A DNA stretch of 64,000 bases. Origin: Verrucomicrobiota bacterium (lineage in GTDB: Bacteria; Verrucomicrobiota; Verrucomicrobiia; Limisphaerales; UBA11358). The position numbers were made by a program, and so were the translations under genes. The notes under the pieces are model-generated. The model saw only the letters and a program-made list of their open reading frames with translations, ran no database searches and was not told the origin of the DNA. Below, in pieces: positions 15,449 through 58,315 of this stretch (position 1 is the first letter of the stretch; each line of letters starts with the position of its first letter). The DNA is taken from assembly GCA_049523455.1 (NCBI GenBank), contig JBEKMW010000003.1:3736-67735 (forward strand). The letters run 5' to 3'.

Positions 15449-18202
15449 ATGAAAACGTTCTTTTTTCTTTCGGCGCTCATTGCCGGCGCCCTCCTCTCTT
15501 TCCGCGCCTGCGCCGCGGTGTTTTACGTGAACGCGAATAACGCGAATCCAACCCCGCCCTACCTGAATTGGGCCACCGCGGCCACCAACATCCAGGACGC
15601 CGTGTCGCTCAGCGCGGCGGGCGACACCGTTTGGGTGACGAATGGCATTTATCAATTCAGCGGCGGCCCGGACTCAAGCGGGAATTCAAATCGCGTGTTC
15701 GTAGCCAGTCCAAACGTCACACTGCAAAGCGTCAATGGCCCGGCCGCGACCATCATCCAGGGCTATCAAGTTCCGGGCACCACCAATGGCAGCGCGGCCG
15801 TTCGCTGCGTTTACCTCTCGCGCGGCTCGACACTCTGCGGCTTCACCCTGACCAACGGCGCCACGGGCTGGAACGCCTCCTCCTCCGGCGGGGGCGTATG
15901 CGGCCAGGATTGGACCTGCTCGGCAGCCAATTGTGTTATCACCGGCAATGCCGCTTTAAACCTCGCCGGAGGCGCCGAAAACTGCACTTTGATCAATTGC
16001 CTGCTTACCAGCAACATCACCTTCAGCGCGGTGGGCGGCGCCGCAGACGACTGCCAGTTATTCAACTGCACGGTTGCCAACAATTTCAGTCCGGTTTCCG
16101 GAAGTGGATCCTTCGCGGCAAACTCGATCCTATACGACAATAACGATAACCTGTACGCACAAAACATTCCTGTCACCAATTGTTGTGTCGATTATTCCTA
16201 TGTCGCATATGCTGGCACAAACGCGATGTTCGGCCCGCCCCCCTGGGTCAATGAGTCTGTCGGCGATTATCATCTCGCCCTCGGCTCACGCTGCATTGGC
16301 GCGGGCAACACCAACTTCGTTTATACGGCCACGGATTTGGACGGCAACCCGCGCATCGTCGGCGGCGCGGTGGACCTAGGCGCCTACCAGAGCGACTACA
16401 CCAACGTCGTCCACTACGTGAGCTTGAGAAGTCCGGGTCCCGTGCCGCCCTACACCAACTGGAGTACTGCGGCCGCCACCATCCAGCAGGCCATCAGCGT
16501 GGCTCAAAGCGGCGAAGTGGTGGTAGCAGACTGGACCGATTACCGAGGGTACTACAATTCCAGCAACACGGTCATCTATGGACAAGAGGGCAACCGCATA
16601 GCCATCACCAATGCCATCACGGTGGTGGGTCTGTATGGGCCGGCCTCCACCACTGTCACCGGGGCCGGCGGGACGCGCTGCGCTTACGTGGGCAGCAACG
16701 CCGTATTAATCGGATTCACCCTGGCGAATGGCCAGGGTAGGCAGACTGGGGGCGATCTCATCAAGGAACAGAGTGGTGGGGGTGCCTGGTGTGAGGTGGG
16801 CGGGGTGATTTCCAATTGTATCGTCGGTGGCGAATTTGGATATTACAACAACAACGTCTATGGCGGCTATGGAGCCGGAGTATATGGAGGAACGATTTAC
16901 AACAGCACGATAACTGGTAATTATGCGCAATCTGGAGGAGGCGCCGCAGCCTCGGCAACACTTTACAACTGCACACTTTCATACAATGAAACCGGCACCG
17001 GGGCGTATCAGTGCGCCCTTTATGACTGCACCATCGCTAACAACTCGCCCACCGGCGCCGGGGCCACCCAATGCACGCTTTCCAATTGCACGGTGAGCGC
17101 CAGTTCCGGCAATGGGGTCAGCCAAAGCGTACTATACAATTGCACCGTGACCGGGAGTACCAGCGCCGGGGCCAGTCAATGCACATTGTATGACTGCACC
17201 TTGATCGGGAATACCAACACCGGGGCCAGTCAAAGCACATTGCACAATTGCACCGCGACCGGCAACCTCGGAGGCGGGGCTTCCGGCTGCACCAATTATA
17301 ACTGCACATTTGCGTTCAATTCCGGAGGCGGTGGGGCTTCGGGGGGCATTTCGTATAATTGTATCCTGTCAACCAACACACGTAGCTTTGGAGGCGGCGG
17401 CGCCATTGACGGCACCCTCTACAATTGTCTCATCAAAAATAACTCAGGAGTAAATGGCGGCGACGCGTACGGATGCACGCTCTACAACTGCACCATTACC
17501 GGCAACTCCGCCGGCACGGGGGGCGGAGTGGTTAGCGGCACCCTTTACAACTGCATTATTTACTCCAACTCTTCCCCGAACGGCGCCAATTACGCTAACT
17601 CCACCTTGAATTATTGTGACACGACGCCGCTTCCTACCAACGGCGTCGGCAATATCTCCAGCGACCCCGCGTTCGTAAATCCCGCCGGCGGCAATTTCCA
17701 TGTTTCATCCAACTCCCCCTGCATCAACTCCGGCGACAACGCTTACGTCACCGTCACCAATGATTTGGACGGCAACGCGCGCATCGTCGGCGGTACCGTG
17801 GACATGGGCGCCTACGAGTACCAAACCCCCTCCTCCGTCATCTCCTACGCCTACCTTCAGCAATACGGCCTGCCCACCGACGGCTCGGTGGATTTCGCCG
17901 ACTTGGACGGCACACCCTTTACCGTCTATCAGGATTGGATCGCCGGGTTGAATCCCACCAACCCCGCTTCGGTTCTGGTCATGTTGCCGCCCGCCGCCAG
18001 CAACAACACCGCCGGCATCACCGTGACCTGGCAGAGCGTCAGCGGCATCACCTACTTCCTGCAAAGCAGCACCAACCTGACCGCCCAGCCCGCCTTTTCG
18101 ACCATTCAAACCAACCTCCTGGGCCAGCCCGGCACGACCAGCTACACCGACACCACCGCCACCAACCCCGTCCCCTACTTCTACCGCGTCGGAGTCCAGT
18201 GA
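15449..18202 (+). CDS. Secreted right-handed beta-helix repeat protein with C-terminal FYRV module
   Basis: Signal peptide MKTFFFLSALIAGALLSFRACAA. Dozens of short repeats of the form C(T/A)LYNCT..N.. and two DLDGN(P/A)RIVGG.VD.GAY(E/Q) motifs typical of choice-of-anchor/beta-helix proteins. C-terminus ends ITVTWQSVSGITYFLQSSTNL...YFYRVGVQ. Confidence 0.8.
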   Translation: MKTFFFLSALIAGALLSFRACAAVFYVNANNANPTPPYLNWATAATNIQDAVSLSAAGDTVWVTNGIYQFSGGPDSSGNSNRVFVASPNVTLQSVNGPAATIIQGYQVPGTTNGSAAVRCVYLSRGSTLCGFTLTNGATGWNASSSGGGVCGQDWTCSAANCVITGNAALNLAGGAENCTLINCLLTSNITFSAVGGAADDCQLFNCTVANNFSPVSGSGSFAANSILYDNNDNLYAQNIPVTNCCVDYSYVAYAGTNAMFGPPPWVNESVGDYHLALGSRCIGAGNTNFVYTATDLDGNPRIVGGAVDLGAYQSDYTNVVHYVSLRSPGPVPPYTNWSTAAATIQQAISVAQSGEVVVADWTDYRGYYNSSNTVIYGQEGNRIAITNAITVVGLYGPASTTVTGAGGTRCAYVGSNAVLIGFTLANGQGRQTGGDLIKEQSGGGAWCEVGGVISNCIVGGEFGYYNNNVYGGYGAGVYGGTIYNSTITGNYAQSGGGAAASATLYNCTLSYNETGTGAYQCALYDCTIANNSPTGAGATQCTLSNCTVSASSGNGVSQSVLYNCTVTGSTSAGASQCTLYDCTLIGNTNTGASQSTLHNCTATGNLGGGASGCTNYNCTFAFNSGGGGASGGISYNCILSTNTRSFGGGGAIDGTLYNCLIKNNSGVNGGDAYGCTLYNCTITGNSAGTGGGVVSGTLYNCIIYSNSSPNGANYANSTLNYCDTTPLPTNGVGNISSDPAFVNPAGGNFHVSSNSPCINSGDNAYVTVTNDLDGNARIVGGTVDMGAYEYQTPSSVISYAYLQQYGLPTDGSVDFADLDGTPFTVYQDWIAGLNPTNPASVLVMLPPAASNNTAGITVTWQSVSGITYFLQSSTNLTAQPAFSTIQTNLLGQPGTTSYTDTTATNPVPYFYRVGVQ

Positions 18203-35574: not shown

Positions 35575-37068
35575 ATGGAAACGTCTATGAAAACAACAAA
35601 ATCATCATTATTCGGAACTCTCACTATCACGGCGGCTCTTTTGATCGGCTGGTCCGCCAATGCACAACCCACCCCGCCCTTCAGTTCGTCGCTGGTTTTG
35701 AACATACCTTTCGATGGCAGCGTGGTGGACACCGGGCCAAACGACTTCACGGTCAATACCAATGGAGGGGGAACCTGGGTGACGAACAGATTTTTGCAGA
35801 CGAATTCAGCCTGGTCCTTGAACGGGGTGAATCAGAACATTGAGATTCCCTACGATGCCCGATTGTATCCAGAACAGATGACGTTAAGTTTATGGGTCAA
35901 CGTCCAATCAATCTCGAGTATTCAAATGATGATCTGGCGCGCGGGGAACGGATCCTCCGATGGGTGGCGCGGGTTTGATCTTTTTAACTCATCAGGAAGT
36001 TACTGGTATCAGGATTATACCGGCAGTTCGGGTAACGCAAACCTCTCCTTTGCCCAGACCAACATCGCCCTTGGAACCTGGTATCAAATCGTTGTTACCA
36101 GGACGACCAACTCGGCAGCCGTTTACGTGGACGGCGTCCAACTAGCTTCTCAGACCGGTTTGACTCCTTACACAAAGCCTCAAACCACCCCCATGAGCAT
36201 TGGCGCTAATAATGCCGATCCCAGCGGTTTTAATTGGTTCACCCCGGCCGTTTTCGATACAGTTCACATCTACAATCGCGCCTTGTCCACAAATGAAGTC
36301 GCGGAGTTGTATGCTTACGAGTCAGTCCCTCAAACCACAAACCCGCCGTCAATCACCGGTCAACCGCAGTCCCTGGTGGTCAATGCCCACGACATGGCCT
36401 CATTCAGTGTGACGGCCAGCGGCTCATCGCCATTGTATTATCAGTGGACACTTAACGAGACAAATATTTTGGATGCCACGGACAGCACTTTGACGGTTAC
36501 CAATGTGACACAGGAGGATTTGGGGGCCTATGCGGTGGTGGTCACCGACGCTTCTGGTTCGACCACCAGTTCCAATGCCATGCTGTCCATGTACCCATTT
36601 TTGGCCGTGCCGTTTGGCGGCGAGGTGACGGATTGGGGCCAGAACGCCATTCTCAGTGTGCAGGCGTGGGGAACCGGGCCGTTGAGCTACCAGTGGTATG
36701 ACGATGGTGACGCCGTTTTGAACGCGACCAATGAAACCCTGGACTTGTCGAGCATTCAATTCACGAACGCCGGCCTTTACTCGGTGGTGGTCAGCAGTCC
36801 ATTGGGCAGTGTGACGAACACACCGGAGCAGGTGGTGGTGAACACCGCGGGGGTTTCCCTCGGGATGTATGCCGGCGTCACGATTACCGGAACAGTTGGT
36901 TCCACCTATGTTATTCAAGCCACGTCGAATTTAAGCGACATCAACTCCTGGGTTTCGGTGGCCACTCTGACGCTGGAGCAACCGGTTGAACTCTGGGTGG
37001 ACATCAGCGCCAATGTCTCGGTGCCCGGAACTACGCAGCGGTTCTATCGGGTTTTACCGGGTCAATAA
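35575..37068 (+). CDS. Secreted LamG (concanavalin-like lectin) + Ig-like repeat protein with C-terminal FYRV module
   Basis: Signal peptide (METS)MKTTKSSLFGTLTITAALLIGWSANA. LamG-type region ends FDTVHIYNRALSTNEVAELY. Two Ig-like units (PPSITGQPQSLVVNAHDMASFSVTASGSSPLYYQW...). Tail is GSTYVIQATSNLSDINSW...TQRFYRVLPGQ. Confidence 0.8.
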   Translation: METSMKTTKSSLFGTLTITAALLIGWSANAQPTPPFSSSLVLNIPFDGSVVDTGPNDFTVNTNGGGTWVTNRFLQTNSAWSLNGVNQNIEIPYDARLYPEQMTLSLWVNVQSISSIQMMIWRAGNGSSDGWRGFDLFNSSGSYWYQDYTGSSGNANLSFAQTNIALGTWYQIVVTRTTNSAAVYVDGVQLASQTGLTPYTKPQTTPMSIGANNADPSGFNWFTPAVFDTVHIYNRALSTNEVAELYAYESVPQTTNPPSITGQPQSLVVNAHDMASFSVTASGSSPLYYQWTLNETNILDATDSTLTVTNVTQEDLGAYAVVVTDASGSTTSSNAMLSMYPFLAVPFGGEVTDWGQNAILSVQAWGTGPLSYQWYDDGDAVLNATNETLDLSSIQFTNAGLYSVVVSSPLGSVTNTPEQVVVNTAGVSLGMYAGVTITGTVGSTYVIQATSNLSDINSWVSVATLTLEQPVELWVDISANVSVPGTTQRFYRVLPGQ

Positions 37069-38743: not shown

Positions 38744-41700
38744 TCATTGCACAATCAGGCGGTAGAAGCGTTTCGTGCCCAGCGGCGCGGTTAGCGAACC
38801 ATTGTCCACAAATTGGAACACCCCGGTGGCGGACGTGATGAGTCCGGGCACGGTGGTCCAGCTTGTGGCGGGCAAGGCCGGCGTCCATTGCACCTGGAAT
38901 GACTCATAGGTCGGCGCCGTCCACTGCAGGGTAATGCTGTTGTTCGCCCACGTGACGTTCTTGAGATTGGGTATGACCAGCGGCGTGGTCACGGCGGCCT
39001 GCAAGGCCAGACCGAAGTAACCACCGCCCGCCACCATCACCACGTTGCTCAATCCGGACGGCACATTCGTGTCACCCCCCGTTCCGTCACCCCACGCGAT
39101 CACGGTGCCGTCGCTCCGCAACGCCAGATTATGATAATCGCCGGCCGCTATCGCTTGCACACTGTTCAGGCCCGCGGGAATGCTGGTTTCCCCAAAGAAA
39201 TCGTCACCCCATGCTTTCACCGTCCCGTCACTCCTCAGCGCCAGGCTGTCCTCCGCTCCGCCGGCCACGGCGACAGCGTTGGTCAGGTTCGCCGGAACGT
39301 TCGTCTCGCCGTCAAAGCCATAACCCCAGGCCACCACCGTGCCATTGTTTTCCACCGCCAGGGTGTGGGACCACCCGGCCGCGATCGTCACCACGTTGCC
39401 CAGTCCCGGCGGAATGTTGGTCTGGCCATACGTGTTGTCGCCCCACACAGTCACCGTGCCATTGCTCTGCAACGCCACGCTATGATCGTACCCCGCCGCA
39501 ATCGCCACCACGTTGCTCAACCCCGTCGGCACATTCAGTTGGCCGAAGGTGTTGTCGCCCCAGCCGACGACGGTGCCATCGCCCGCCAACGCCAGGCTGT
39601 AGTAAACCCCCGCCGACACCGCCACCACGTTGCTCAGTCCGGGCGGAATGTTCGTCTGTTCATACGAGTCGTCGCCCCAGACGGCCACCGTGCCGTCATG
39701 GTTCAGCGCCAGGGTGTGATATTCGCCCGCCGCAATCGCCACCAGGTTGGTCAAACCGGCCGGCGTGATGAGTTGTTCGCTGCTGTTATCGCCCCAGCCC
39801 ACGATGCTGCCGTCAGAGAATTCCTGGTCCGCGCCGTAAGCCGCCCCAACCGCGTTGCTGACCACCAGCCGGAAGTAATAGCCGTGGCCGTCAAGCAGAT
39901 TGGCGATGGTGTTGGTCACCCACACCACGCCGTAGCCGTTCCCCACGTTTACCGGCGCGGTTTGATTGGTGAACAGCGGGTTGGGACCCCATTGGAACCA
40001 GGCCAGCGAAGGCGTTCCATTCGGCGACGCAAACCCGTTGAGCTCGGCGTTGGTGCCCGTCACCCAGGTCGCCGGGGCGGTGAACGCGGCGGGCCCCGGT
40101 ATCGGCAGCACGATGACCTGGAACGTATTGGTTGCGCCCAGTGGCGGCAGTCCGTTGTTGAACACCACGGTCGTGATGAGATTGGTCGTGCTCTCCTGCG
40201 CCGCCGTCGGCGTCCAGGTAATGACGCCGGCGGGCGAAATCGTCATGCCCGCTGGCGCGCCCGGCAGAGTGTAGGTCAACACCTGCGGCGGCGAATACAC
40301 GTCCGTGGCGTTGTTCGTCACCGTGAGCGCAGACAACGCGAAAATGGTTTGATTGGGCGGCGTGGCCACAAACACCGGCGGAAGGTTGGTGGCCAGACCC
40401 AGCAGCTCCAGCCGATACAGGCGCGCAGACCCAAACCCGCCGGTCTGGGAACCGTCGTCGAAGAACTGGAACAGGCTGTTGCTGGGGGTGATATAGGTCG
40501 TATAGGCAATGATATTGCTGAAGGCGTTCCACGCCACCGGCGGCGTCAGGCTGGCCGCCCACTGCAACTGGAATAGATCGTTGGTCGCTCCATACCAGCT
40601 TAACAGGAACCCCGGCTTGCCGCCGATAACCGTGTTGGTGATATACAGCGTGTCAATCGGCGGCGGCGGAATTACCAAATGGAAATTCACCGCGATGGCA
40701 TAATTGACCGTGGCGCTGCCGGTGTTTTGCACGCCCAGCCAGTAGGTTGCGCCCGCCGGCAGCAAGGGCGTTCCGTTGTTGGTGGCGATCACCGCCTGCC
40801 CGCCAGTTGTGCTGGACAGCAGGGTGAGGTCGCCCGGATTGGAAATGCTCGGCGGCAGGTTCGTGCTGAACCAGACGTTTACCGGCTGCGGATTGGCATA
40901 TAATAGAATATTGGTGGCGTAATCGGCGTTGACCGGCACGCTGACCTCATACCACGTCAGGCCGCCCGGCGTCAGCGAGTTGGTCTGTGGCCGGCTGCTC
41001 TGGGTCTGGCCGGTGCCGAGCGTGTAGGGCGGAAGCACGGTGAGGCTGAAGCTGTTGGTCGCGCTCAGACTCTGGTTGACCTGCACGTAAGGATTGGTGT
41101 CCGTCACCACCGTCGTGATGGTGTAAACATGGTTGGTCTGTGCCAGCGTCGGCATCCAGAGGATGACGCCGTTGCTGGAAATGCTCATGCCCGCCGGCGG
41201 GGCGATCAAGGCATAGGTCAGCGGATTGGGCAGGTCCGGATTGGTCGCCGCGTTGGTTATGGCCACCGTGCTCAGGGCATAGACGTTCTGGTTGGGCGGC
41301 GTGGCCAGGAATACCGGCGGCGAGTTGGTGAATACCCCCAGCACCTCCAACCGATAGAAGCGCGTCAGCCCGAATCCGCCTGTCTGCGAACCGTCGTCGA
41401 AGAACTGGAACAGGCTGTTGTTGGGCGTGAGGTACGTCGTGTAGGTGATGACGTTGGTAAACGCGTTCCACGCCACCGGCGGGGCCAGGCTGCCCGCCCA
41501 TTGCACCTGGAACAGATCGTTCGTCGGCCCGTACCAGCTCAGCAGGTAGCCGATCTTGCCGGCGATGTTGGTGTAAACGATGGCCACCAGGTTGGTCGGC
41601 GGTGGCGGCGGCACCAGGTGGAATTTAACCGCGATGTTGTACGTCGTAATGCCGTTGGTTTGCACGCCCAGATAGTAAGTTCCGCCAGGCACAATAAAGG

Positions 41701-44700
41701 GCGGCGGGGGATTGGTACCCAACACGACGAAACCATTGGTGCCAGTCGGATATGTCCCATCCGGCAGGAGTAACACCGCAGTACCATTGGTGGTCGGCGG
41801 AACGTTGGTACTCCACCACAGATCCACCGGCGCGGTGGACGAAATCAGGAAATTCGTTGCCAGATCCGCGTTCGTCGGCACGGCGATGGTTGTCCAGGCA
41901 ATGCCGTTGGTCACCGGGGGCGGCGGCGGCACGAGGTGGAAATAGACCTGCACATTGTAGGTGGTGAGGCCATTGGTCTCCACGCCCAGCCAGTAACTCC
42001 CGCCCGGCACAATGAACGCCGGCGTGGTGTTCGTGCCCAATACATACAAACCATTGGTGCCGGTCGGATACGTCGCGTCCGGCAGGAGTAATACCGCATT
42101 ATTATTGGTGGTCGGTGGTGTGTTGGTGGTCCACCACAAATCCACCGGCGCAGTCGCCGAAATCAAATCGTTCGTGGCCCAATCCGCATTCGTCGGCACA
42201 TTAACTTGTATCCACGCGACGCCGTTGGACGGAGGTAGCACCAGATGGAAATTCACCTCGATCGCGTAGGTGACATTGGCCGCGTTGGTGTTTTGCACCG
42301 CCAGATAGTAGGTTTGGCCCGGCACCAGCGGCGGCGTGCCGTTCGTGCTCAGCACCACGGCTCCGCCGGTGGAACTCGAGAACAACGCGTCATCCGGCGG
42401 GTGGCCACCTGCCGGAAGGGTTGCCTGGTTGAACCACACGTTGACCGGACCGGTCGCAAACAGCAGCAGGTTTGTGGCGAAATCCGCGTTGGGCGGCACC
42501 GTGATCGCGTAATAATCCATGTCGCCGCCGGTGAAGCTGTTGGTCCCGCCGTTGATGGTATTCGTCACCGGCTGCCCGCCGCTGATGGGCGCCGGTTGCA
42601 GCGACGACGCGAAGTTCACCTCGATGGTGTAGTTCACGCTGGGACCGTTCGTGTTCTGCACGCCCAGGTAATAAACCCCGGCCGGCACCAGCGGCGGATA
42701 ATTCGTCGGCGTCAAGGTGCTCACCCCGTTGGTGGCGCTCCCAATCAGCAGCGCGTCACCCGGAAAGCCCGTGGTGGGCGGATTATTGGTGCTGTACACC
42801 AGATTCACCGATCCGCTGGCCGAGAGCAGCAGGTTGAAGGCGGCGGCGGCGCCCGCCGGCACGTTGACCTGATACCAACTGATGGGGTCTCCGCCGGTAG
42901 TGCCCGCCACCGTGCCACTGGTCGGCTGGCCCGGATTGAGAATCGGCAGGCTGGTCAGATTGGTGTTGGCAAACGTGAACTGCAGTTGCCAGCTCAGAAG
43001 TTCGGGCGGCGGATTCGTCGCGCCCACCCGGTCGTCCTGAATCTCCAACTGCCAAAGCCCCTGCGCGCTCGTGTTGTCGAGGCTGCTGATGTCCTGATCG
43101 GGCTGGTAGTACAGATTATTGGCCACGCTGGTCACCGTGAAATTGTCCAGCAACATCCCCGGTTCCAAGCCCGTGATTTCCAAAGGCGTTCCACTCTGCG
43201 TGGCGGTGAAGGTGGTGGTATAGACCTGCCAAGTCATATTGTTGCCGTTAATGACAGCGGGAGTGCCGCCGTTCAAACTGATTCCCGCTTCCGAAAGACT
43301 CAGCGCCGGCGAACTGGCGAATAAGGCATGATCAAATTTGCCTTCGCCGCCTTTTTGATAAATAGCTTTGATTTCGGACGCGCTAAGAGTGCGGTTGTAA
43401 ACGCTCATTTCGTCCAATCCGTTCCATTGGCTGGGTTCACTTGCATTAACGACACGCCATCCTATGTTTACATTATAACCGGGCGTGGTTTGAGGCGTAA
43501 ATTTGCCGCTCCAATTATAGTAATTCACTGGCACAATGGCCGCGCCATTGTAATAGAGCTTCCCTTGCACCAAATACTGGTTGTAAGTCGTGGCGACATG
43601 CTGATAAGAGCCGGCTTGGACCAGGTTGGCCGCACTGGAAAGCCAATGGTCGCCGCCACCGGTGTCTATGTAATTGGCATACAGACAACCCGCGCCTGTG
43701 CCGTAAGGACCTGTTCCTGGCCCCGTCGAAATATTCAAATGAGGGCCATAGGCGGAACCGTTATCCCACTCCAAACCAAACCGCTCTGTATTCAGGACCG
43801 ACGGATTGATCCAACCTTCGATGGTCATACCGGGCCCGGTTCCAACATTCAAGGTGGAATTGCCGGGCGCCCCGACATACATGTCGGTGCCCAAAAGCGA
43901 AAAGGCCGAGCCAACTTCACCATTGGTATAACTTCCCCCGTTATACATTGTGCCATTATTGTTAAATCCCGAACTATCGAGCGTATTGCTCTCCCCGCGC
44001 CACCAGCCAACAATTCCCGGCCCGCGATAGGCAAACGACAGCGTGTAAGTCTGGCCGGCCACCGTCGGCAGGTTGTTGGAAATCACGCCGCTGGCCAGCG
44101 CCAGGAAATTGCTTCCGGCATAGGCATTGGTGGGATCGGTTACCACGCTGACCTCGTTGCTGATAACGGTCCAGCGGTTGCCAAAAGTCTGTCCATTCGT
44201 ATAGTCGCCGGCGGCCGTTGTCTCAAACCCGTCAAAGAACACGTTGCTCACGGCGCCACTCGGCACAAACGGCGTGGGCGCAAACTTGATGGGCGTGGTC
44301 GTCAGGTTCGTATTTTCAGTGAACGTGAGATACAGGAAATTCGTGGTCACGTTGGTCACGGAGAGCGTGGCGAACACGTTGCTGACGGTTACCGTGAAAT
44401 TGCTGACGATCAGGCTGTCCAGCAACATGCCGGGTTCCGTGCCCGTGATAATCAACTGGTTATTGCCGTTCGTAGGCAGGTTGCCGGAGGCGGTAAAGGT
44501 CTGCCACGTGGTATTGTTGCCATTGATGACTACCGTTCTACCGTTCGTATTCACAGACGCTTCCGCCAGGCTGAGCGCCGGCGAATTGGAGAATACGCCA
44601 GCGTCAAATTTCCCTCGCGTGCCCAGGTTATTAATGGCTGCAATTTCAGCGTCCGAAAGCGCACGCCCATAGACACTGAGTTCATCGGTCAATCCCTGAT

Positions 44701-47700
44701 ATGTCTCTCCCAGGGCAACCGTCTGGCTGATGCGTTGCCCAATACTTACGAAGGGATAAGCCGTTTCCGGCGTAAAATAGCCGAAATTATTCGATGCCAC
44801 CATCGTCCCATCCACATAAAGGCGGGCAGCACCGGACACTTTATCGTAGGTTACGGCCGCATGTTGAAAACGGCTCGTCACAAACAATCCATTCGGACTG
44901 GTGATGGTATGGCCATTCCCCGATGTGTCTCTGAGATTTGAGAATAAATTAATTCCCGACCACAGTTCCGGGCCGTCCCCAATGGGAGAGGGGCTGGCCA
45001 TCGAGTATTCTATCATCGGCCCATTTGCAGCATTGACATAGGCATCTTTTATCCAGCATTCCAGAGTGATGCCGCTGCCGTATGCGCCCACATTCAAACT
45101 TGGCGAGTTGGAAACCAGGACATAACCGCTGTTGTCGCCATAAAATTGAAAGGCTTCGCCCACTTCACCGCCCGAATAGCCAACCTCTCCGGATATGGTT
45201 CCATTATTTCCATTGATACTTTCCACGGTGTTACTCTCCGCCCGCCACCAGGCGGCAATCGCCGGCCCGCGATACGCAAACGTAAACGTGTAAGCCCCGT
45301 TGGTTATTGTGGAAGGGAAAGTATAAGACAGCCCGCCGTTGGCAAGGGCCAGAAGATTCGTGCCCTGATAGGCATTGGTCGGGTCGGTGACCACACTGAC
45401 CTCATTCGTGGTCACCGTCCAACCGCCTATGGTCGCGCCGGCGGCAAAATCCGCCGCCATCATGCCTTCAAAGTTGTTGGTTACCACCACCGTGTTCGTC
45501 ACCAACACCGTATAATTCGTCACCACCGTCGTTATATTGGTCTCCACGATGGATATCCCCGCGCCGCTCGTGCTCATGCCCCCCTCGTTTTCCATCAGCA
45601 AATACCGCGTGCCGTTCGGGCTGATCAACTGGAACACCAGGTCCGAAATCCGCGTGTCCGCCACCGCAATGCCCACGCTCAGCGACTGGATCAAACTCGG
45701 GTTCGCCACCAGAATGGAACTGTAAGACACCGCGTCATCCGGAATCACCGTTGGCCCGCCCTCGTAATCCACATTGGTAATCGCCGACTGCGAAAAAGCC
45801 AGCGTGGCGTAGATATGAACGTTCGCCGCGACCAGGCTGGGATTGTAGATGCCGACATAATAAGTTCCCGGCGCCAGCGGCGGGCCCACCGAAACATAAT
45901 TGGTATAAAAGTCAACGGGCCCGCCGGAAACGGGGAAGTCGTTAGTCAACCAGGCTTCCTCATTGGTGTCCGCGAACGTCGGGTCCGAGCCGTAATTGAC
46001 ATAAAGTTGCAACGGCGGTGACGATTCAGGCGGATACTCCTCGGCCACCACCGTCAGGTTCGTGTACCCCACCGGCACGTCTTGGAAGGTATAGACCCAA
46101 CTGCCGGGCTCAACGGTCACGTTAATGCCGTGGGTGAGCGGCGTATAAGGCACGAGCGTCATGGTCAAGGCCGCCACATAACCGGTATGCGTCAGCGCCG
46201 TGTCCGCCTCGGTCATCATCCATACCCCGATGCCCTGGCTGCCGAAGAAGCTCTGCAAGCTGCCCGGCCCATCGGACAATATCGCGCCCTGCACATTCGT
46301 AATCCCGCCGTCACTGTAGGCAAGATTGTACGGTCCCGGCGGGTTGCCCAGATCATCATGGTTGTTGAGCACCACGCTCGTGCCGTTATGATTGAGCGTG
46401 CCAATCAGATCGCCGTAATTCTGATGCCAAATCGAATCATCCACAATTACCTGTCCCACCTCCATCGGATACAGCGCCAAGCCGAAAGTGTAGGCGTAGC
46501 CCGGATTTTTCAGGTCGCCGTCGGGAATGTTATTGGGCAGCGGGATGCCGTTGACTATCTGATTGCCATTGTTCATCTCGCTGAATGGCGTCGAAGTAAA
46601 CACCGACAGGAAATCGTACTCCGCCGCCATCTGCCGCTCCGAATACACGCCAATGTAATACACCTGGCTATGCGTCGAATTCGTGTCCACCACGAATTGC
46701 GTCCCGCTCAGGCTCAACGACGCCCCGTTGAACACCGGCGGCGTCCCCGCCGACGCGCCGATTTGCGTCCCGTTGATGCAGTTCGAAATCGTCACCGGCG
46801 ACAGCGTCAGCAAATTCGAATCCGTCGTCACATACAGGTCAATGTCCGCCCCCGGCGTGGTTGCGTTGTCCACGTTCGGCTGGTACACGCCGATCCGCGG
46901 AATCGAAAGTGTGTTCGGCAGGAACGTGATGAACGCCGCGTTGGACAGGCTCAATCCGTTGGTGGTCAACTGCGAATTCGTCACCACGTAGAAATGCCAC
47001 TGGTTGGTCATGCCCAGTGTATCCACCGCATCGGCCGCGTAAGGCGAACCCGGCGCGAAGTCTGCCTGGTTGGTCCCCAGCAACGGCGTGCTCGCCCCGG
47101 CAAACTGGTCCATCAGCGGCGCATTGGTGGTAACGATGTAGGTGATGTCCTGGTCACCCGTCGGATTGTAAAGCTGCCCGCCATCCGCGACCGTCATGGC
47201 GTTGGTCACCTCGCCTTCCCCGCTGGAAATCACCAGCGCGAAATCCTGCACCACGTTGTTCGAGTTCGCCGTCACCGCGTTTACATTCACGTCGCGCGCC
47301 AGCACCGTGATCGAATAATTCGTCCCCACCGGCTGCGAAATATAGACGTTCTTGACGTTGTTCACGTAATCGTAAGCCACCACATCGTTCGTCCCGTGCG
47401 GGTTGTTGAAATCTCCCGACGAAATGTCATTGCCATAATAAACGATCGGCGGATTGGCGCCGTAATTGGTCACCACCAGGTCCAGGTTGTTCACCAGCTT
47501 GATCGCCGCCGCCGGGTCGCCGGGCGGGTCCGTCCAAGCCAGCGTCACCCGCAACGGCAGCAGCGTCTGCGCCGTGGCGCTGGTTATGTTCACCAGATAC
47601 GTGTGGCTCCCGCCCGTCGCCAGCGCGTTCGTCGGATTCTGGTCCAGGATAAACTCCGAACACCCCGCCCCGATCTGATTCGTCAATCCCGCCGGCACCG

Positions 47701-50032
47701 AGTTTGTCAAGTTCGCCAGGCCCCACCCTTCGTAGTTGATGCTGTTGGCCACCTGCAACCCGTATTCCCCCGTCGGCCGCGCCCCGTTGATCAACATCGC
47801 CTTCAGCAGCGCCGGGCTGGGCGTCAGCCGCAGCGTGTTGGTGAAATAATCCGCCATGTCCGCCAGCACGCCCGACACGTTCGCCGCCGACATGCTCGTC
47901 CCTGTCTCGTACCGGTAATACGGCCCGGCCCCCGTGCTCGCCGGATTCGGCGCGCCGATGCCCAGGTCCAGATTGCTCAACACCAATTCATAATTCCCCG
48001 GATTGTTCGTCGTCACCGTGTCTTCGATGATGTCGAACTCGATCGGCTGGGGCGTGCTGTTGCTGATGGCAAACGGGAATGCCGAAATGTAAGTCTGCTC
48101 GTCCACTAGAATCTGGCTCAACGTCGGATTGTCCGGCGGAATCGTAACCTCATTGGTGTACATGTTCTGCAAGGGCGTCCCGCCGAACCGCCACGTGTAA
48201 ATCGGCAGCGCCGGAAACGGCGTGGGCGAATTCGCGTCCGGCACCGCGTCAATCGTCACCTCCACCGTGTTCGTCGGTATCGTCGGAAAATCGTTCTCGC
48301 TCAGCGTGTTCCCCGGCACCTCCACCGTCAAATCCACCACGGCGTTGTTGGTGTCCGAGCTGGCGAAATACGAATTGATGTCCCACTGCTCCGAGCGCGT
48401 GGAGATGATAAACGTCCCCGGCGCCACCACGTCCGGCTTAAACCGCCCATTGACGCCCTCCGTGTTGATGCCCACGTTGCCGCGGCTCGAAAATCCCGCT
48501 ATCCGGTAGCCCGTGCTCGTCTCCGCCTGCCACGGCTCGCTCACCGTCCCCACGGCGTTGGTCACCTGGTTGGTGATGTTCCGGTCCTCCTGGATCGCCC
48601 CCACCGTGATCACGTTCTTGGCCGTGCCCGGCGAATCAACTGTGTCCGCCGTCCCCGCCCCCGGATCGCTCGAGTCATCGCCGTTCCCCTCGTCGCCCGC
48701 CGCAAACACAAACAACACCGGCTGCGACCCGGTCGTCAGCGGCAACGCGTCCCGCACCGCCGCGTCGTAGCTCGCCGCCGCCAAATCATACGCTTCGTCC
48801 CCGCCATAGACCCAACTGTTGTTCGATATCAGCGCGTTCGTCAGCGCCGGCGCCTCCTGCAAATACATGTCGCTGATCGGATTGGTGTCCCCGCCCCCGT
48901 ACACCCCGCCCACCGAATACAACGTCGCGTTCGGCGCCATGCCCCGAAACTGCCCGTTCGTCGCCGGCAATATCGAACCCTGCGCATTCGACACCGTCAT
49001 GGACTCAAACCCGTCCCCGGCGATGATGCCTGCCACGTGCGTGCCGTGGCCGTCGGTATCCACCAGGCTTTGCGCCGCATCGCCTATCACGCGGATCGGC
49101 GCGTTCCCCCACGTCTTAAAATCCGGATGCTTCGCGTCAATGCCCGAATCGTTCACCTCCACCAATACGTTTGACCCGGATAGCCCCATGTAGTTGCTTG
49201 TCGTCTGTGAATTCGGCGCCACCGACACCGTCGCGCGCGCCAAATCGTTCGCCGGCACGCGCCGGCTCGAGGGCTCCACTATGTGCAGATACGGCAAGTC
49301 CGCCACCGCCGTCCAATCCGCCGGCGGCAGCACGTTCAATATCGTCCCGTTTTGCGACGGCGTCTGCGACAACACCGTTCCGCCGCTCGCCTGTATCGCC
49401 GCCACCGCGTCTTGTCCCGTACCCGGAAACACCTCCACGTTTAGAGTCGCGCCGCTGGGCAACGGCTGGTTCATCCACGGCAGCAACGACGACGCCACCT
49501 TGTAATACGGCTCGTACGGCACCACCGCGAATCCCAGGCCTTGGATTCCCTCCGCCGCCGCCTGGTCCATCATCACCAGGTAGGCGTTGTTCGGTATGTA
49601 CGAAACCACCTGCCCGCCCGAGGACGCCAGCATCGCGCGGAACGTCGGGCTGATCGGCCCGTGGGCCTGCACGATGTAGGCCTTCGGATCGCCCTTGGCC
49701 CGCAATTTATCCGGTATGGCCAGGCCCAATCCCGCCCGCGTGTCAATCAACGCATTCGCCAGCAGGATGGCGTGCGGGTCGCGCCCCAGCTCGGCGAGCG
49801 TGCGGGTAGTGTTGCTCAGACGCCACAGCCGATTCGTCCGCGCTTCCACCGCCAGTGTCGCCGGCGTGTTGGTGGATAGAATTTTGAACGGCGCAATTTT
49901 CGCCGCCCCCGCCACCGGCCCGCCGCCCCCGGCGCGGTGCGTTTGCAACACCAATTGATGACGCGTGAAGAGCACGAAGCCCGCTGCCACCAGCAAGCCC
50001 AAAAGTATCCAAGTCCATCGGCGTGAGTTCAT
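38744..50032 (-). CDS. Giant (3762-aa) secreted/anchored multidomain protein with an S8 subtilase and multiple binding-type modules
   Basis: Domain order:
- N-terminal TM/signal RRWTWILLGLLVAAGFVLF.
- S8 triad VNDSGID (about 49150), HGTHVAG (about 49040), GTSMSAANVSG (about 47893).
- Convertase P-domain-like segments (LISPNGTRYLLMENEGG).
- Two LamG modules (DELSVYGRALSDAEI, MSVYNRTLSASEI).
- At least 5 PPC-like units ending (Y)(T/A)IEVNF or similar.
- Two cadherin-like units (PPVF.ATPPNQ).
- Seven RCC1-like blades (38999-39811).
- C-terminal FYRL module (38744-38998).
The ORF-track start at 50041 is TTG; the first ATG is at 50032. Confidence 0.9.
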   Translation of the reverse strand: MNSRRWTWILLGLLVAAGFVLFTRHQLVLQTHRAGGGGPVAGAAKIAPFKILSTNTPATLAVEARTNRLWRLSNTTRTLAELGRDPHAILLANALIDTRAGLGLAIPDKLRAKGDPKAYIVQAHGPISPTFRAMLASSGGQVVSYIPNNAYLVMMDQAAAEGIQGLGFAVVPYEPYYKVASSLLPWMNQPLPSGATLNVEVFPGTGQDAVAAIQASGGTVLSQTPSQNGTILNVLPPADWTAVADLPYLHIVEPSSRRVPANDLARATVSVAPNSQTTSNYMGLSGSNVLVEVNDSGIDAKHPDFKTWGNAPIRVIGDAAQSLVDTDGHGTHVAGIIAGDGFESMTVSNAQGSILPATNGQFRGMAPNATLYSVGGVYGGGDTNPISDMYLQEAPALTNALISNNSWVYGGDEAYDLAAASYDAAVRDALPLTTGSQPVLFVFAAGDEGNGDDSSDPGAGTADTVDSPGTAKNVITVGAIQEDRNITNQVTNAVGTVSEPWQAETSTGYRIAGFSSRGNVGINTEGVNGRFKPDVVAPGTFIISTRSEQWDINSYFASSDTNNAVVDLTVEVPGNTLSENDFPTIPTNTVEVTIDAVPDANSPTPFPALPIYTWRFGGTPLQNMYTNEVTIPPDNPTLSQILVDEQTYISAFPFAISNSTPQPIEFDIIEDTVTTNNPGNYELVLSNLDLGIGAPNPASTGAGPYYRYETGTSMSAANVSGVLADMADYFTNTLRLTPSPALLKAMLINGARPTGEYGLQVANSINYEGWGLANLTNSVPAGLTNQIGAGCSEFILDQNPTNALATGGSHTYLVNITSATAQTLLPLRVTLAWTDPPGDPAAAIKLVNNLDLVVTNYGANPPIVYYGNDISSGDFNNPHGTNDVVAYDYVNNVKNVYISQPVGTNYSITVLARDVNVNAVTANSNNVVQDFALVISSGEGEVTNAMTVADGGQLYNPTGDQDITYIVTTNAPLMDQFAGASTPLLGTNQADFAPGSPYAADAVDTLGMTNQWHFYVVTNSQLTTNGLSLSNAAFITFLPNTLSIPRIGVYQPNVDNATTPGADIDLYVTTDSNLLTLSPVTISNCINGTQIGASAGTPPVFNGASLSLSGTQFVVDTNSTHSQVYYIGVYSERQMAAEYDFLSVFTSTPFSEMNNGNQIVNGIPLPNNIPDGDLKNPGYAYTFGLALYPMEVGQVIVDDSIWHQNYGDLIGTLNHNGTSVVLNNHDDLGNPPGPYNLAYSDGGITNVQGAILSDGPGSLQSFFGSQGIGVWMMTEADTALTHTGYVAALTMTLVPYTPLTHGINVTVEPGSWVYTFQDVPVGYTNLTVVAEEYPPESSPPLQLYVNYGSDPTFADTNEEAWLTNDFPVSGGPVDFYTNYVSVGPPLAPGTYYVGIYNPSLVAANVHIYATLAFSQSAITNVDYEGGPTVIPDDAVSYSSILVANPSLIQSLSVGIAVADTRISDLVFQLISPNGTRYLLMENEGGMSTSGAGISIVETNITTVVTNYTVLVTNTVVVTNNFEGMMAADFAAGATIGGWTVTTNEVSVVTDPTNAYQGTNLLALANGGLSYTFPSTITNGAYTFTFAYRGPAIAAWWRAESNTVESINGNNGTISGEVGYSGGEVGEAFQFYGDNSGYVLVSNSPSLNVGAYGSGITLECWIKDAYVNAANGPMIEYSMASPSPIGDGPELWSGINLFSNLRDTSGNGHTITSPNGLFVTSRFQHAAVTYDKVSGAARLYVDGTMVASNNFGYFTPETAYPFVSIGQRISQTVALGETYQGLTDELSVYGRALSDAEIAAINNLGTRGKFDAGVFSNSPALSLAEASVNTNGRTVVINGNNTTWQTFTASGNLPTNGNNQLIITGTEPGMLLDSLIVSNFTVTVSNVFATLSVTNVTTNFLYLTFTENTNLTTTPIKFAPTPFVPSGAVSNVFFDGFETTAAGDYTNGQTFGNRWTVISNEVSVVTDPTNAYAGSNFLALASGVISNNLPTVAGQTYTLSFAYRGPGIVGWWRGESNTLDSSGFNNNGTMYNGGSYTNGEVGSAFSLLGTDMYVGAPGNSTLNVGTGPGMTIEGWINPSVLNTERFGLEWDNGSAYGPHLNISTGPGTGPYGTGAGCLYANYIDTGGGDHWLSSAANLVQAGSYQHVATTYNQYLVQGKLYYNGAAIVPVNYYNWSGKFTPQTTPGYNVNIGWRVVNASEPSQWNGLDEMSVYNRTLSASEIKAIYQKGGEGKFDHALFASSPALSLSEAGISLNGGTPAVINGNNMTWQVYTTTFTATQSGTPLEITGLEPGMLLDNFTVTSVANNLYYQPDQDISSLDNTSAQGLWQLEIQDDRVGATNPPPELLSWQLQFTFANTNLTSLPILNPGQPTSGTVAGTTGGDPISWYQVNVPAGAAAAFNLLLSASGSVNLVYSTNNPPTTGFPGDALLIGSATNGVSTLTPTNYPPLVPAGVYYLGVQNTNGPSVNYTIEVNFASSLQPAPISGGQPVTNTINGGTNSFTGGDMDYYAITVPPNADFATNLLLFATGPVNVWFNQATLPAGGHPPDDALFSSSTGGAVVLSTNGTPPLVPGQTYYLAVQNTNAANVTYAIEVNFHLVLPPSNGVAWIQVNVPTNADWATNDLISATAPVDLWWTTNTPPTTNNNAVLLLPDATYPTGTNGLYVLGTNTTPAFIVPGGSYWLGVETNGLTTYNVQVYFHLVPPPPPVTNGIAWTTIAVPTNADLATNFLISSTAPVDLWWSTNVPPTTNGTAVLLLPDGTYPTGTNGFVVLGTNPPPPFIVPGGTYYLGVQTNGITTYNIAVKFHLVPPPPPTNLVAIVYTNIAGKIGYLLSWYGPTNDLFQVQWAGSLAPPVAWNAFTNVITYTTYLTPNNSLFQFFDDGSQTGGFGLTRFYRLEVLGVFTNSPPVFLATPPNQNVYALSTVAITNAATNPDLPNPLTYALIAPPAGMSISSNGVILWMPTLAQTNHVYTITTVVTDTNPYVQVNQSLSATNSFSLTVLPPYTLGTGQTQSSRPQTNSLTPGGLTWYEVSVPVNADYATNILLYANPQPVNVWFSTNLPPSISNPGDLTLLSSTTGGQAVIATNNGTPLLPAGATYWLGVQNTGSATVNYAIAVNFHLVIPPPPIDTLYITNTVIGGKPGFLLSWYGATNDLFQLQWAASLTPPVAWNAFSNIIAYTTYITPSNSLFQFFDDGSQTGGFGSARLYRLELLGLATNLPPVFVATPPNQTIFALSALTVTNNATDVYSPPQVLTYTLPGAPAGMTISPAGVITWTPTAAQESTTNLITTVVFNNGLPPLGATNTFQVIVLPIPGPAAFTAPATWVTGTNAELNGFASPNGTPSLAWFQWGPNPLFTNQTAPVNVGNGYGVVWVTNTIANLLDGHGYYFRLVVSNAVGAAYGADQEFSDGSIVGWGDNSSEQLITPAGLTNLVAIAAGEYHTLALNHDGTVAVWGDDSYEQTNIPPGLSNVVAVSAGVYYSLALAGDGTVVGWGDNTFGQLNVPTGLSNVVAIAAGYDHSVALQSNGTVTVWGDNTYGQTNIPPGLGNVVTIAAGWSHTLAVENNGTVVAWGYGFDGETNVPANLTNAVAVAGGAEDSLALRSDGTVKAWGDDFFGETSIPAGLNSVQAIAAGDYHNLALRSDGTVIAWGDGTGGDTNVPSGLSNVVMVAGGGYFGLALQAAVTTPLVIPNLKNVTWANNSITLQWTAPTYESFQVQWTPALPATSWTTVPGLITSATGVFQFVDNGSLTAPLGTKRFYRLIVQ

Positions 50033-50103
50033 AGGAATCAAGGGTTAATGTTTCATAATTCAACCGCTAACAAAAGTAAAGCCAAACCGCCCAAATCCTC
50101 GCC

Positions 50104-50529: not shown

Positions 50530-53500
50530 TCAATCCGGCGGCAGCGGCGTCGCGCTCTCCACCACCACGTGCGGGTTGGCCGTCCCCGCGCCGTCCACCC
50601 GCAGCACCACCCGCTGCGCACTCTCCGCCACCACCTCGTAATTCGTGCACATCCCGAAATAGGCTGTGCTCGTCACCAGCGAATTGTCCGCCGGCTTCAG
50701 CGCCTGGCCATAACAATAAACCACGTACCGCGGCGTCCCCACCCGCACCAGCCCCATCACCTGCTGCGGCAGCCATTCATACATCTCATCGCTGATCCCC
50801 TGCTGCTGTTGCGCCGTGTCATTCTGCCCGTTGTTTTGCCAATGCAAGAATGGCGACGCCACCGTCAGTTGCGGCACCGACAGCAGGTATCCCGGATGCT
50901 CGAAAACCCCTCTGGTTCCATCCGGATTCGTAAAATTGGTGCGGATGTTGTAAATGCCCTCCACGAGCTGGCCCAGCGGTGAATAGGCGCCCGCCGGCCC
51001 CGCCGGCGAAATCGGATAGGCGGTATAATTTGTCATGGTGCTGGCGGTCTGGCCTGACACGGCGTTGTCCGGCGCATCATTGGAAAGCACCATCACGCCG
51101 CTGAACAGCGCCGACCACGCCGCCAGGCTCCCCAGCGGATCGGGATTGTCCGCGCCCACGTTCACCGAAAGCTGGCCCCGCGTCGCGTCGTCGTCTATCG
51201 TCGAGCTGAATAAATCGAACAGCAGCCAGTCCTTCTTCGGCGCCGAATTCACCGCGTCATACGCATTCTCATCGCTCGTCCAGTTCACCCACAGGTTCGT
51301 GCCAATCAGTCCATTGCCGCCGATCACATCCGACGATTTCAGATAAACCGTCTGCCACGGCGTGCCCCGGTGGACCCGGCCCAGCCAACCAACCGTCGGG
51401 AACTTGTTCGTCGGAAAATTCCAGTCATCCGAACAAGTCACTAGCGGATCTTTCACCTGAAGATTGTATTGATTAATGTCTGCGCCAAAGGCTGGATTGC
51501 CGCCCCACGGCGTGTAACGCTGATTCAGCAGGCCCAAATTGCCCGGGAAATGCAATTGCAGAAAATCACCGGTGCCATTGGTGTAAAGCAAATCGCTCGG
51601 CGTATAATGCACCAGCGGATCGTTCGCCTGCCAATCAATGTCCTGCACCACCAGCGCCGACGGCGTATACGGCATCTGCATCTGGTTGGTCGTCGCGTAG
51701 ATGCCGACTTGGCCGGGATGTGGTACATAGCCCTGAAAAGTGAGGTCGGCAGCGCCTACTCCATTCAGGAAGGCGGCAAAGTCGTTCAACTGATCATAGA
51801 CCATTTGCTCCGTTTGGTTGCCCCAGTCGCTGGCAATGTAACCGGCCTGGCCCGACGAAACGATGAATTGATTTCGCATTCCCGTAGGCATCGCGTGACC
51901 GACCGGAACGTTCGTATCCCATTGATCATCGTAATAAGGATGAACCAGTGTGTCGTATCCCGCCTGAATTTCCGCAGTCAGGTCCCGTATGCTGTAGGGG
52001 CCCCCCAATTGCACGTAGTCAATCACGTGATACGGACCACCCGTAGCATCCGGGCTGGGGTCCAGCATGACCAGTCTCACATTGTTCGTCATCACCAATC
52101 CCCAGTGCGGGCTTGGATACGGCCCAAATCCCGCCAGCGCGATGTTCGTTTCATACGGCAAATTTAAATCCGTGCTCAGGTACGGACCCACATATCCCGG
52201 AAGCTCCGCGTCAGGTGGGGTATTAAAGCGGTACGTGGCGGGCGGGATGGCGCCAAAATTCGTCGGAAAGGCTCCAAAGCCAAATGCATCGGGAAAATTG
52301 GTAATGAATGAATACGGCGCCATGAGTGGGTTGCCGGCCGGATTGTATCCCGGCCAATAATTCCCGGAGTTCGGGTTGAGCGGCGTGGCCACTGTGTTGG
52401 TCATCCCGGTACTCGCACTGAATCCCAAATTATTGGTCAGCGTCATCGTCAGGGCATCGGTAATATAGACGGTGAGCGAATCGGTAAAATTGGACCGGTA
52501 CGAATTCCAGCATTCCATCCCAAACGAGTTCGTCAGCATCATGTCGTACATCGGATAAAAGCTGAAGTCGTTGGGATTGTTGTTGTAGAGGGCATTGGTG
52601 CTGGTGCGGGTCACCAACATCGTGCGCTCTAGCTGGTAGGCGCTCTCCATGAAAAATTCGTTGAAGTTCGGAAATCCCTTCTTGGCCCCGATGATCCACG
52701 GCACCCCATAGACATTTACCCCCGCGTTGAGAATCTGGCCGCCCTGGTTGGCCAAATCCCAAACATTCACCGGCGTGGAAAGCCGCAAATCGCCCGGTCC
52801 TGAGACGTTCGTTACCTCCACGTAGCCGCTGATGAAGAGATCGGCGCCATATCCGTTTGTGTCGCGCGAAAACAGCGGCCGGAAAACGTGCGGGTAATAA
52901 TAGTTCGTCGTTGCGTCATACATGTTGGCGGCGAGCTGCAAGAGCCGGTTCACCGCCGGCGTATAGCAAAACTGTCCGTTCACCCACACCGGTATGTTCG
53001 TCACCCCAAACGCCGGCACCTGGTTGGTCAACCCCAGAAACGGCAGCGTCAGCCCCACGCCCGTGGGCGAATTCGATATGTAATTTCCCTGTGCATCAAT
53101 ATACGAAAAATAATTCGTCTGGAGGCCGTAATAGGTCGCCAGGTAATTGGACGGATCTCTGTAAATCAGGCTCGTCACCGTCGAGTAATTGGTGAAATAG
53201 TCGGACGACAGCCCCTGGAACCAGTTGCTCGTGTACAGCCGCAGCATCCCGTTGGCCGCCGCCGAAAAGAAATCTATCGGCCTCCAGGGGGCAAAGTTCG
53301 TTTCCGCGTTCGGAACAATGGTAAAGCTCGTCGGCGACGGCAACGCAGTAAATATCCCCGCACCCGAGGAACTGGGAACCGCATACGTGACCACGGCGTT
53401 GGAATAATTCACGTTCAGCTTGCCCGCCTCCGGCGTCGTGTCCGAGCCCAGCTCGTCAGCCAATCGCGAGAACGTATAACGGTCATACGTGGCCACCGTG

Positions 53501-54843: not shown

Positions 54844-54974
54844 CGGGCCGGCAAGCGGTAAAACACTTGATTTACGGGCTTGCGAACCTCGAAGCGGCAT
54901 AAATGCCGCGCCCCGCCGCCCGATCGGCGGCGCGCCATTCGTCATTCGTAATTCGTCATTCGTAATTCGAAATT

Positions 54975-55925: not shown

Positions 55926-56029
55926 CGGTGCGCGGCGTTCACGCCGCTTCAGCGTGCCCAGCGGTGCCTGGCCGGAAAATTCCTGAATCTCCAGCCGGCG
56001 CCACGATGAAGCGGCATAAATGCCGCGCG

Positions 56030-58314: not shown

Positions 58315-58315
58315 T

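Follow-up and report, generated by a model that had tools for sequence, protein, structure and literature searches.

Three otherwise unrelated secreted proteins, encoded in a 64,000-nucleotide stretch of a soil Verrucomicrobiota genome (contig JBEKMW010000003.1, positions 3,736 to 67,735; the whole stretch is called the window, and positions are counted from its first letter), were found to end in the same module of about 75 amino acids (aa), named here the FYR module after its terminal motif. The first carrier is a secreted beta-helix protein of 917 aa (15449..18202, + strand) with the signal peptide MKTFFFLSALIAGALLSFRACAA and two choice-of-anchor Q domains, and its C-terminal module lies at 17972..18199 (+; VLVMLPP...PYFYRVGVQ; stop 18200-18202). 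The second is a secreted protein of 493 aa with one LamG and two Ig domains (35587..37068, +) and the signal peptide MKTTKSSLFGTLTITAALLIGWSANA, the module of which was located at 36838..37065 (+; VNTAGVSLG...QRFYRVLPGQ; stop 37066-37068). The third is a giant subtilase of about 3760 aa (38744..50041, -), with the ATG at 50032 as its likely start, composed of an N-terminal hydrophobic anchor or signal, Peptidase_S8, a P-domain, two LamG domains, PPC-like and RCC1 repeats and three modules. Its terminal module is at 38747..38980 (-; LVIPNLKN...KRFYRLIVQ; stop 38744-38746). All module coordinates, those of the two internal copies below included, were checked by translation, and N-terminal Sec-type signals were present on 3/3 carriers.

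The C-termini of the beta-helix protein, the LamG/Ig protein and the giant subtilase read ...TTATNPVPYFYRVGVQ, ...VPGTTQRFYRVLPGQ and ...LGTKRFYRLIVQ, respectively, each up to the stop codon. An identical protein is on record for the beta-helix carrier, on three contigs, and another for the LamG/Ig carrier, with the gene called from 35587; the start at 35575 given in an earlier sequence-only reading of the window was corrected accordingly. Homologues of the giant subtilase that share its architecture were also recovered (P0134, P0202, P0121 and P0205). That reading had proposed the common ending and two further copies inside the giant protein. The common ending, with the stop 3-4 residues past (F/Y)YR(V/L), was borne out by translation and by external profiles, and the internal copies were located at 41339..41596 (-; copy 1, ending in ...TRFYRLEVL, RFYRLEVLG) and 40400..40654 (-; copy 2, ending in ...ARLYRLELL, RLYRLELLG, followed by an Ig-like domain). 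The conserved Trp that it had described is not universal, since the C' position of the beta-helix tail is occupied by Phe and the B-strand Trp is missing from the LamG tail; only D, Y and R were invariant in an alignment of 18 sequences.

Pairwise similarity among the three window tails was weak and not significant in direct searches, so homology needed outside evidence. Subfamily profiles of the beta-helix, LamG/Ig and giant types, built from external sequences only, cross-detected the other window tails with E values of 2e-4 to 3e-3, and hhalign between the subfamilies gave probabilities of 93-95% with E values of 4e-7 to 2e-8. A profile of the five copies, run against the six-frame translation of the window, matched exactly the five copies. 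The nonsignificant pairwise searches could be taken to mean that a short FYRV-like motif had arisen by chance or convergence on unrelated C-termini with no common domain. Against this, [FY]YR[VL] was counted 4 times in window open reading frames (ORFs) of at least 100 aa, with 0.84 expected, and 3 times at 2-5 residues before a stop, with 0.014 expected, a model-free count for which the Poisson P of about 5e-7 comes from motif position alone. The mutual detection of independent profiles, the hhalign probabilities, the secondary-structure pattern common to the beta-helix and LamG tail models and the thousands of family members point the same way. Chance or convergence is effectively excluded, and at the level of sequence the window tails are homologous, which confirms the original observation.

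The family proved large. An exhaustive HMMER search over 1.84 billion representatives (clusters at 50% identity) gave 10,374 matches at E<=1e-3 and 1,380 at E<=1e-10, and the named sources of the members were mostly metagenome-assembled genomes (MAGs) of Verrucomicrobiota/Limisphaerales. A word-indexed search with a single beta-helix tail gave no match, and one with the five-copy alignment gave short fragments only. In local iteration of the hidden Markov model (HMM), round 4 drifted into an N-terminal SWATAATNIQDAVDAA unit of choice-of-anchor Q proteins and was discarded, and the round 3 HMM, filtered on coverage of the FYR end, was used.

Position in the protein was followed in two samples, both biased. 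Among the 148 best-scoring proteins, where ranking by summed score favours multi-copy proteins, the module was within 8 residues of the C-terminus in 132 (89%); two of the non-terminal multi-copy matches, P0128 and P0238, are genuine Pfam fn3 arrays. The other sample consists of 79 genome loci (1.34 Mb) fetched with the tail alignment of one subfamily, the beta-helix type, and is therefore seeded. In these loci 108/113 modules ended 1-6 aa before the stop, and [FYL][FY][RQ][VLIA] occurred 111 times in the last 12 residues of proteins, with 4.9 expected. Module matches ending at most 3 aa from the protein end numbered 115/123. The stop followed the motif after 3-5 aa in 93% of the terminal copies, the last residue being Pro in 64% and Gln in 13%. 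The best match of a terminal copy in another protein was again terminal in 79 of 100 cases (about 40% expected) and that of an internal copy was internal in 142 of 153; the terminal copies therefore form a separate sub-lineage. Some 29 further carriers, which were not seeds, were detected by the HMM in the locus flanks, 19 of them unrelated proteins and the rest extra copies of the beta-helix family, often in tandem, and 10 more divergent tails (FFRLSQ, FFRLKQ, FYRLHKP and others, each at the stop) were found in the loci by the terminal-motif regular expression only. With three carriers in a 64-kb window, about 29 plus 10 in the loci and 10,374 clusters, a tagged secretome would fit the abundance of the family.

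Sixty-one of the 79 loci are labelled Verrucomicrobiota, Verrucomicrobiia or Limisphaerales, 14 have other labels and four are named 'bacterium' only. The 14 (L010, L011, L015, L020, L023, L037, L043, L057, L062, L067, L069, L072, L074 and L084) are assigned to Limnocylindrales, Pseudomonadales, Bifidobacteriaceae and Acidoferrum; their carriers resemble those of the Verrucomicrobiia loci, and they are probably mis-binned or mislabelled. Carriers of the beta-helix type often stand in arrays of tandem paralogues (L010 5903-10231, L044 8777-15312, L052 2011-7828, L055 7481-14646 and others) with 1-6 copies of SWATAATNIQDAVDAAxxGDxILVTNGVYQTGGR, which opens each beta-helix block and is the unit behind the HMM drift. 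In the window, a bacterial TSP3-like calcium-binding motif, DFADLDGTPFTVYQDWIAGLNPTNPAS, lies at 17893-17964 (+), just 5' of the beta-helix tail. PF18884 occurs at the equivalent place in many homologous fragments, so a TSP3 repeat followed by the module makes up a conserved end-piece of the beta-helix-type subfamily.

For the fold, a scan of the three tails against Pfam and NCBIfam gave no family match. The sole signal was a sub-threshold one to the fibronectin type III (Fn3) family, PF00041, on the giant tail (16.3 bits against a cut-off of 25, E=0.012), and the other two tails gave no match to it, so assignment to PF00041 at the Pfam gathering threshold was not reached. An AlphaFold2 (AF2) model of the beta-helix tail (79-aa query) was all-beta, with a mean confidence (pLDDT) of 82 and above 90 in the core. 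Its strands, at 19-25, 30-36, 46-53, 57-63 and 73-78 of 79, have the spacing of Fn3 strands B, C, C', E and F, and nothing follows F. The model of the LamG tail, made from a five-sequence alignment, was of low confidence (pLDDT 60) with the same strand order, and it was not used for the fold search. When the beta-helix tail model was searched against the Protein Data Bank (PDB) with Foldseek, the best matches were Fn3 domains with TM scores of 0.57-0.59, all weak with E >0.1; no type IX secretion system (T9SS) C-terminal domain (CTD) was among the top 50.

By sequence, the module profile matched two solved bacterial Fn3 modules, namely 3MPC, an 'Fn3-like protein' (E=2.2e-5), and the Fn3 domain of CtXyl5A in 5G56 (E=1.4e-3). 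The alignment with 3MPC covers positions 12-76 of the 81 in the profile and residues 17-73 of the 103 in the chain and sets FYR(V) of the profile opposite YYYV of 3MPC, and from comparison with canonical Fn3 the FYR(V) motif was read as the F strand. The profile stops 5 positions past the F motif, whereas 3MPC runs about 30 residues further without counterpart in the module; by canonical Fn3 topology these extra residues would be the FG loop and the G strand. In the internal copies, too, FYRLxLL is followed at once by the next domain. The module is thus homologous to solved Fn3 domains and Fn3-like in fold (3MPC, 5G56, Foldseek and the AF2 strand spacing), and a complete seven-strand sandwich with FG loop and G strand was not found. 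The module is a divergent, lineage-specific, truncated Fn3-like beta-sandwich of strands A-B-C-C'-E-F, with no FG loop or G strand encoded.

The carriers are enriched for signal peptides, which were called on 99/108 carriers and on 266/546 other ORFs of the same loci. The heuristic is permissive, since it scores 49% of the controls as positive, and only the contrast between carriers and controls was used, together with visual inspection, by which typical Sec signal peptides could be seen on carriers. That the module sits on otherwise unrelated secreted proteins held well beyond the window, where many unrelated enzymes and binding proteins carry it. The passengers include proteases (S8 subtilase with P-domain, astacin, pro-kumamolisin (sedolisin) with BACON), glycan-related proteins (GH16, DUF5060), propellers (Kelch, NHL/SBBP, WD40, RCC1), binding or adhesin-type proteins (LamG, Ig arrays, BspA-type LRR, MBG/YDG/PKD), an esterase and choice-of-anchor Q beta-helices. 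The module follows choice-of-anchor Q and C passengers, and 'choice-of-anchor' families are surface proteins with alternative anchor ends, which could be LPXTG, PEP-CTERM or a T9SS CTD (bioRxiv 10.1101/2023.03.06.531300). NHL-propeller paralogues were observed to end either in PEP-CTERM (L027 10249-11163, L044 7567-8553, L066 13060-14031) or, at the same position, in the module (L048 14449-16410, L067 6199-8496). PEP-CTERM tails and modules coexist in related MAG loci, and never both on one protein.

The giant subtilase lies directly downstream of a cluster resembling a type II secretion system (T2SS) (50530..63999, -). It comprises GspE (62707-63999, -, running off the window), GspF (61394-62701, -), five pseudopilin-like genes (54975-60828, -) and a GspK/Verru_Chthon_A-like protein of 1482 aa (50530-54978, -) whose N-terminus weakly matches Verru_Chthon cassette protein A. 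No Pfam domain was seen in the 1482-aa protein, which has a helix of pseudopilin type at its N-terminus (GVALIITLILLSVTLLMAVAF) and closes in a tail of its own, ...VVVESATPLPPD, up to the stop. Paralogues of its C-terminal 750 aa (44% identity) were found at L006 15999-18794 and L065 16001-18763, where a signal peptide and the FYR module (QFYRSVLLN at the stop) replace the pilin-type N-terminus in an apparent swap of anchors. The cluster and the giant subtilase together (38744-63999) are collinear gene for gene with L088 1-18985, on a 10.5-Mb contig, at 30-35% identity, and the order is also kept in L087 40-14938 and in the visible part of L086 1-17795; a GspK/Verru_Chthon_A-like protein of about 1400 aa stands within the conserved run across loci. 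Because the gene order is conserved at only 30-35% identity, the giant subtilase is, so far as gene content and order can tell, a conserved member or client of the T2SS-like system, and the operon-like run in the window is read as a T2SS-like system of ancient origin to which a giant protease is dedicated. An FkbM-family methyltransferase gene (37655-38503, -) follows immediately downstream on the strand of the giant subtilase, and L087 has a 298-aa gene at a similar place on the opposite strand; a functional link between the FkbM gene and the giant subtilase is possible.

The sequence-only reading had further suggested that the tag marks the cargo set of this gsp system, that is, that the module is the recognition tag of the neighbouring GspE/F-pseudopilin machine and that its carriers are the substrates. 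A giant subtilase with three modules directly downstream of the cluster, the conservation of that arrangement in L088, L087 and L086, and the Sec signal peptides of the carriers, which T2SS substrates also have, are in keeping with this, as is a report that in Omnitrophota, a related phylum, T2SS-like loci precede giant genes (bioRxiv 10.1101/2023.11.21.568195). The other two window carriers, however, sit among unrelated genes, including histidine kinase/response regulator genes and the housekeeping genes thiC and uvrA/ychF. A thiamine pyrophosphate (TPP) riboswitch (RF00059, 18626-18751, +; 62.3 bits against a gathering score of 54.3) occupies the gap between the beta-helix carrier and thiC (18789/18840-20780), so these two are separate units. 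Within about 10 kb of the beta-helix-type carriers, GspF was found in 2/79 loci and GspE in none, and L087 keeps the cluster and the giant gene with the LamG/Ig carrier missing. Classical T2SS substrates are not known to bear a linear or single-domain signal, which also counts against a tag of this kind. Co-location with the cluster could therefore be established for the giant subtilase family alone; the conserved synteny belongs to that gene family and not to the module, and a role of the module as cargo tag of the gsp machine is improbable.

The reading we tentatively favour, at somewhat less than even chances, is that the module, placed at the C-terminus, targets Sec-exported proteins of Limisphaerales-type Verrucomicrobiota to the cell envelope or retains them there. 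The N-terminal signal peptide would take the protein across the inner membrane. The last domain, its C-terminus free and its F-strand edge exposed, would then be recognised by a putative conserved envelope partner, plausibly by beta-strand augmentation, and this recognition would keep or route the protein at the cell surface, with the internal copies being ordinary structural repeats of the same domain family. The partner, the use of the open strand edge and the surface retention or sorting as its result are all inferred. Such a logic would parallel that of T9SS CTDs, PEP-CTERM or dockerins, although fold and phylum differ. Anchoring or sorting at the C-terminus fits because of the terminal bias, the fixed end and separate sub-lineage of the terminal copies, the truncated fold, the signal peptides, the diversity of passengers and the positional equivalence with PEP-CTERM, and an anchor role is supported by the paralogues of the 1482-aa protein, in which a signal peptide and the module take the place of the pilin-type N-terminus. 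A bolder version seems rather unlikely: a new class of sorting or surface-anchoring domain on tens to >100 proteins per genome, read by an outer-envelope component that would complete the missing G strand in a donor-strand-like docking, with the internal copies perhaps acting as docking sites or scaffolds.

Several observations weigh against a targeting or retention role. Known sorting signals are essentially single and terminal, and 292 of the 424 modules in the 148 best-scoring proteins are internal, while three beta-helix-type proteins in the 79 loci have a tandem module pair; such internal and array copies set the module apart from pure terminal tags of the T9SS CTD or PEP-CTERM kind. In the giant family the tail (about 43% identity) is no better conserved than the passenger (41-57%). 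Among solved structures, those nearest to the module are Fn3 modules with a structural role in clostridial glycoside hydrolases, and the open F-strand edge, which is deduced from sequence and DSSP, might be covered by the N-terminal A strand. Outside the giant subtilase family no genomic linkage of carriers to secretion genes was seen, GspF being rare and GspE absent around the beta-helix-type carriers. No partner or processing enzyme was found among the conserved neighbours of the carriers, and the search for a conserved partner gene near carriers gave only housekeeping-looking syntenic genes (RNase D-like, acyl-CoA synthetase-like and methyltransferase-like, with no match in the window), judged from three sequences that were read without a Pfam scan.

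These points lead to the chief competing explanation, which is only a little less likely than the favoured one: the module could be an ordinary Fn3-like spacer, stabiliser or substrate- or surface-binding domain without any sorting role, its terminal bias coming from domain accretion at 3' ends and from family inheritance. The matches of the profile to 3MPC and 5G56, in which the role is structural, agree with this, and so do the Fn3 domains at the top of the Foldseek search, the weak Pfam fn3 match, the true fn3 arrays P0128 and P0238 among the multi-copy matches, the commonness of internal and tandem copies and the lack of a partner gene near carriers. In addition, the tail subfamilies travel with their own passengers, the beta-helix type with beta-helices, the VLPGQ type with Ig proteins and the giant type with subtilases. 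A spacer at the very end of a protein, however, has nothing to space. An ordinary domain would also leave unaccounted for the terminal share of 89-95% (132/148 best-scoring proteins; 108/113 modules in the loci), the fixed tail length and terminal Pro or Gln, the separate sub-lineage of terminal copies, the PEP-CTERM at the same position in paralogues and the loss of the canonical G strand in the whole family. The sequence-only reading had compared the ending with sorting or anchoring signals such as T9SS CTDs and PEP-CTERM, and had named as the outcome that would speak against this a generic Fn3/Ig domain at arbitrary positions. The resemblance stands for C-terminal bias, secreted carriers and sorting-signal position, and fails for the internal copies and for the T9SS and PEP-CTERM models, none of which matched. 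The module is indeed Fn3-like and can be internal, but its C-terminal bias and its association with secreted proteins are strong.

A literature search for a described verrucomicrobial C-terminal sorting domain found none, and the source annotations of the carriers ('hypothetical', 'LamG-like', 'proprotein convertase P-domain') name a sorting domain in no case. The truncated-Fn3 anatomy and the host phylum are new, and no curated model or paper was found for the tail. If the module is a tag, it would give Verrucomicrobiota, which are abundant degraders of polymers in soil and peat, a marker of the surface secretome, as T9SS CTDs and PEP-CTERM do elsewhere. MAGs would then allow exoproteomes to be predicted, phylogenetic profiling could guide the search for the receptor or processing machinery, and the module would illustrate how a sorting domain can arise from an Fn3 fold without its last strand. 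Even if it is structural only, a family of more than 10,000 clusters beyond Pfam and NCBIfam, closing many large hypothetical proteins, makes a curated model worthwhile.

Among known systems, T9SS CTDs of Bacteroidota are like the module in being extreme C-terminal Ig-like beta-sandwiches of 70-100 aa, divergent in sequence, on many Sec-dependent enzymes and adhesins (dozens per genome) with diverse passengers, and in also standing behind choice-of-anchor passengers. The module differs in being an Fn3 domain without the last strand that also occurs internally and in arrays; terminal position and Sec signal peptides were observed as in T9SS cargo, yet internal and tandem copies are common. The three tails gave no match at E<=0.1 to TIGR04183/PF18962 (type A) or TIGR04131/PF13585 (type B), and the only trace of the system in the 64 kb of genome was a TPR match to PorW that stayed below threshold (54.9 bits; cut-off 250). 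Verrucomicrobiota are not known to possess a T9SS. The PEP-CTERM/exosortase signal is likewise found at the extreme C-terminus of many secreted Verrucomicrobiota proteins, at the equivalent place in NHL-propeller paralogues, and true PEP-CTERM tails are present on other ORFs of the related loci. It consists of a short motif, a transmembrane helix and a basic cluster, whereas the module is a folded beta domain; the window tails finish on a beta strand (...FYRVGVQ), lack a hydrophobic helix and gave no NCBIfam match, so they were rejected as PEP-CTERM.

Dockerins are also small C-terminal units on many unrelated secreted enzymes, which they dock to a partner, and giant repeat-bearing proteins could in principle act as scaffolds, as in cohesin-dockerin systems. 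A dockerin has a Ca-binding, duplicated, EF-hand-like helical fold, while the module gave no Pfam match to PF00404, is all-beta in its predicted structure and has no identified cohesin-like partner; like T9SS CTD and PEP-CTERM membership, dockerin membership was rejected. Chaperone-usher pilins share with it an Ig-like sandwich without G strand, whose edge or groove could be filled by a strand of another protein; unlike them, the module stands in no chaperone-usher context and lacks an N-terminal extension motif, and strand complementation is here only suggested. The surroundings of the giant subtilase, in which GspE/F and a pseudopilin cassette that includes a very large A-like protein directly precede a giant secreted protein whose S8 domain is N-terminal, recall the Verru_Chthon cassette (TIGR02596-02600), with matches of these models to the window genes being N-terminal only and far below the cut-offs. 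They also recall the Omnitrophota loci, where T2SS-like genes lie upstream of giant genes; the giant proteins there are far larger, have other domain sets and are not described as bearing the FYR module. The Fn3 modules of extracellular glycoside hydrolases (3MPC and CtXyl5A 5G56), nearest among solved structures by sequence profile, have the strand order of the module and share its B, C and F motifs (W; YxV/LxR/Q; YYYV/FYRV). These modules continue for about 30 residues past the F motif and sit between other modules as structural hubs, whereas the FYR module stops with the F strand and in the great majority of cases closes the protein.

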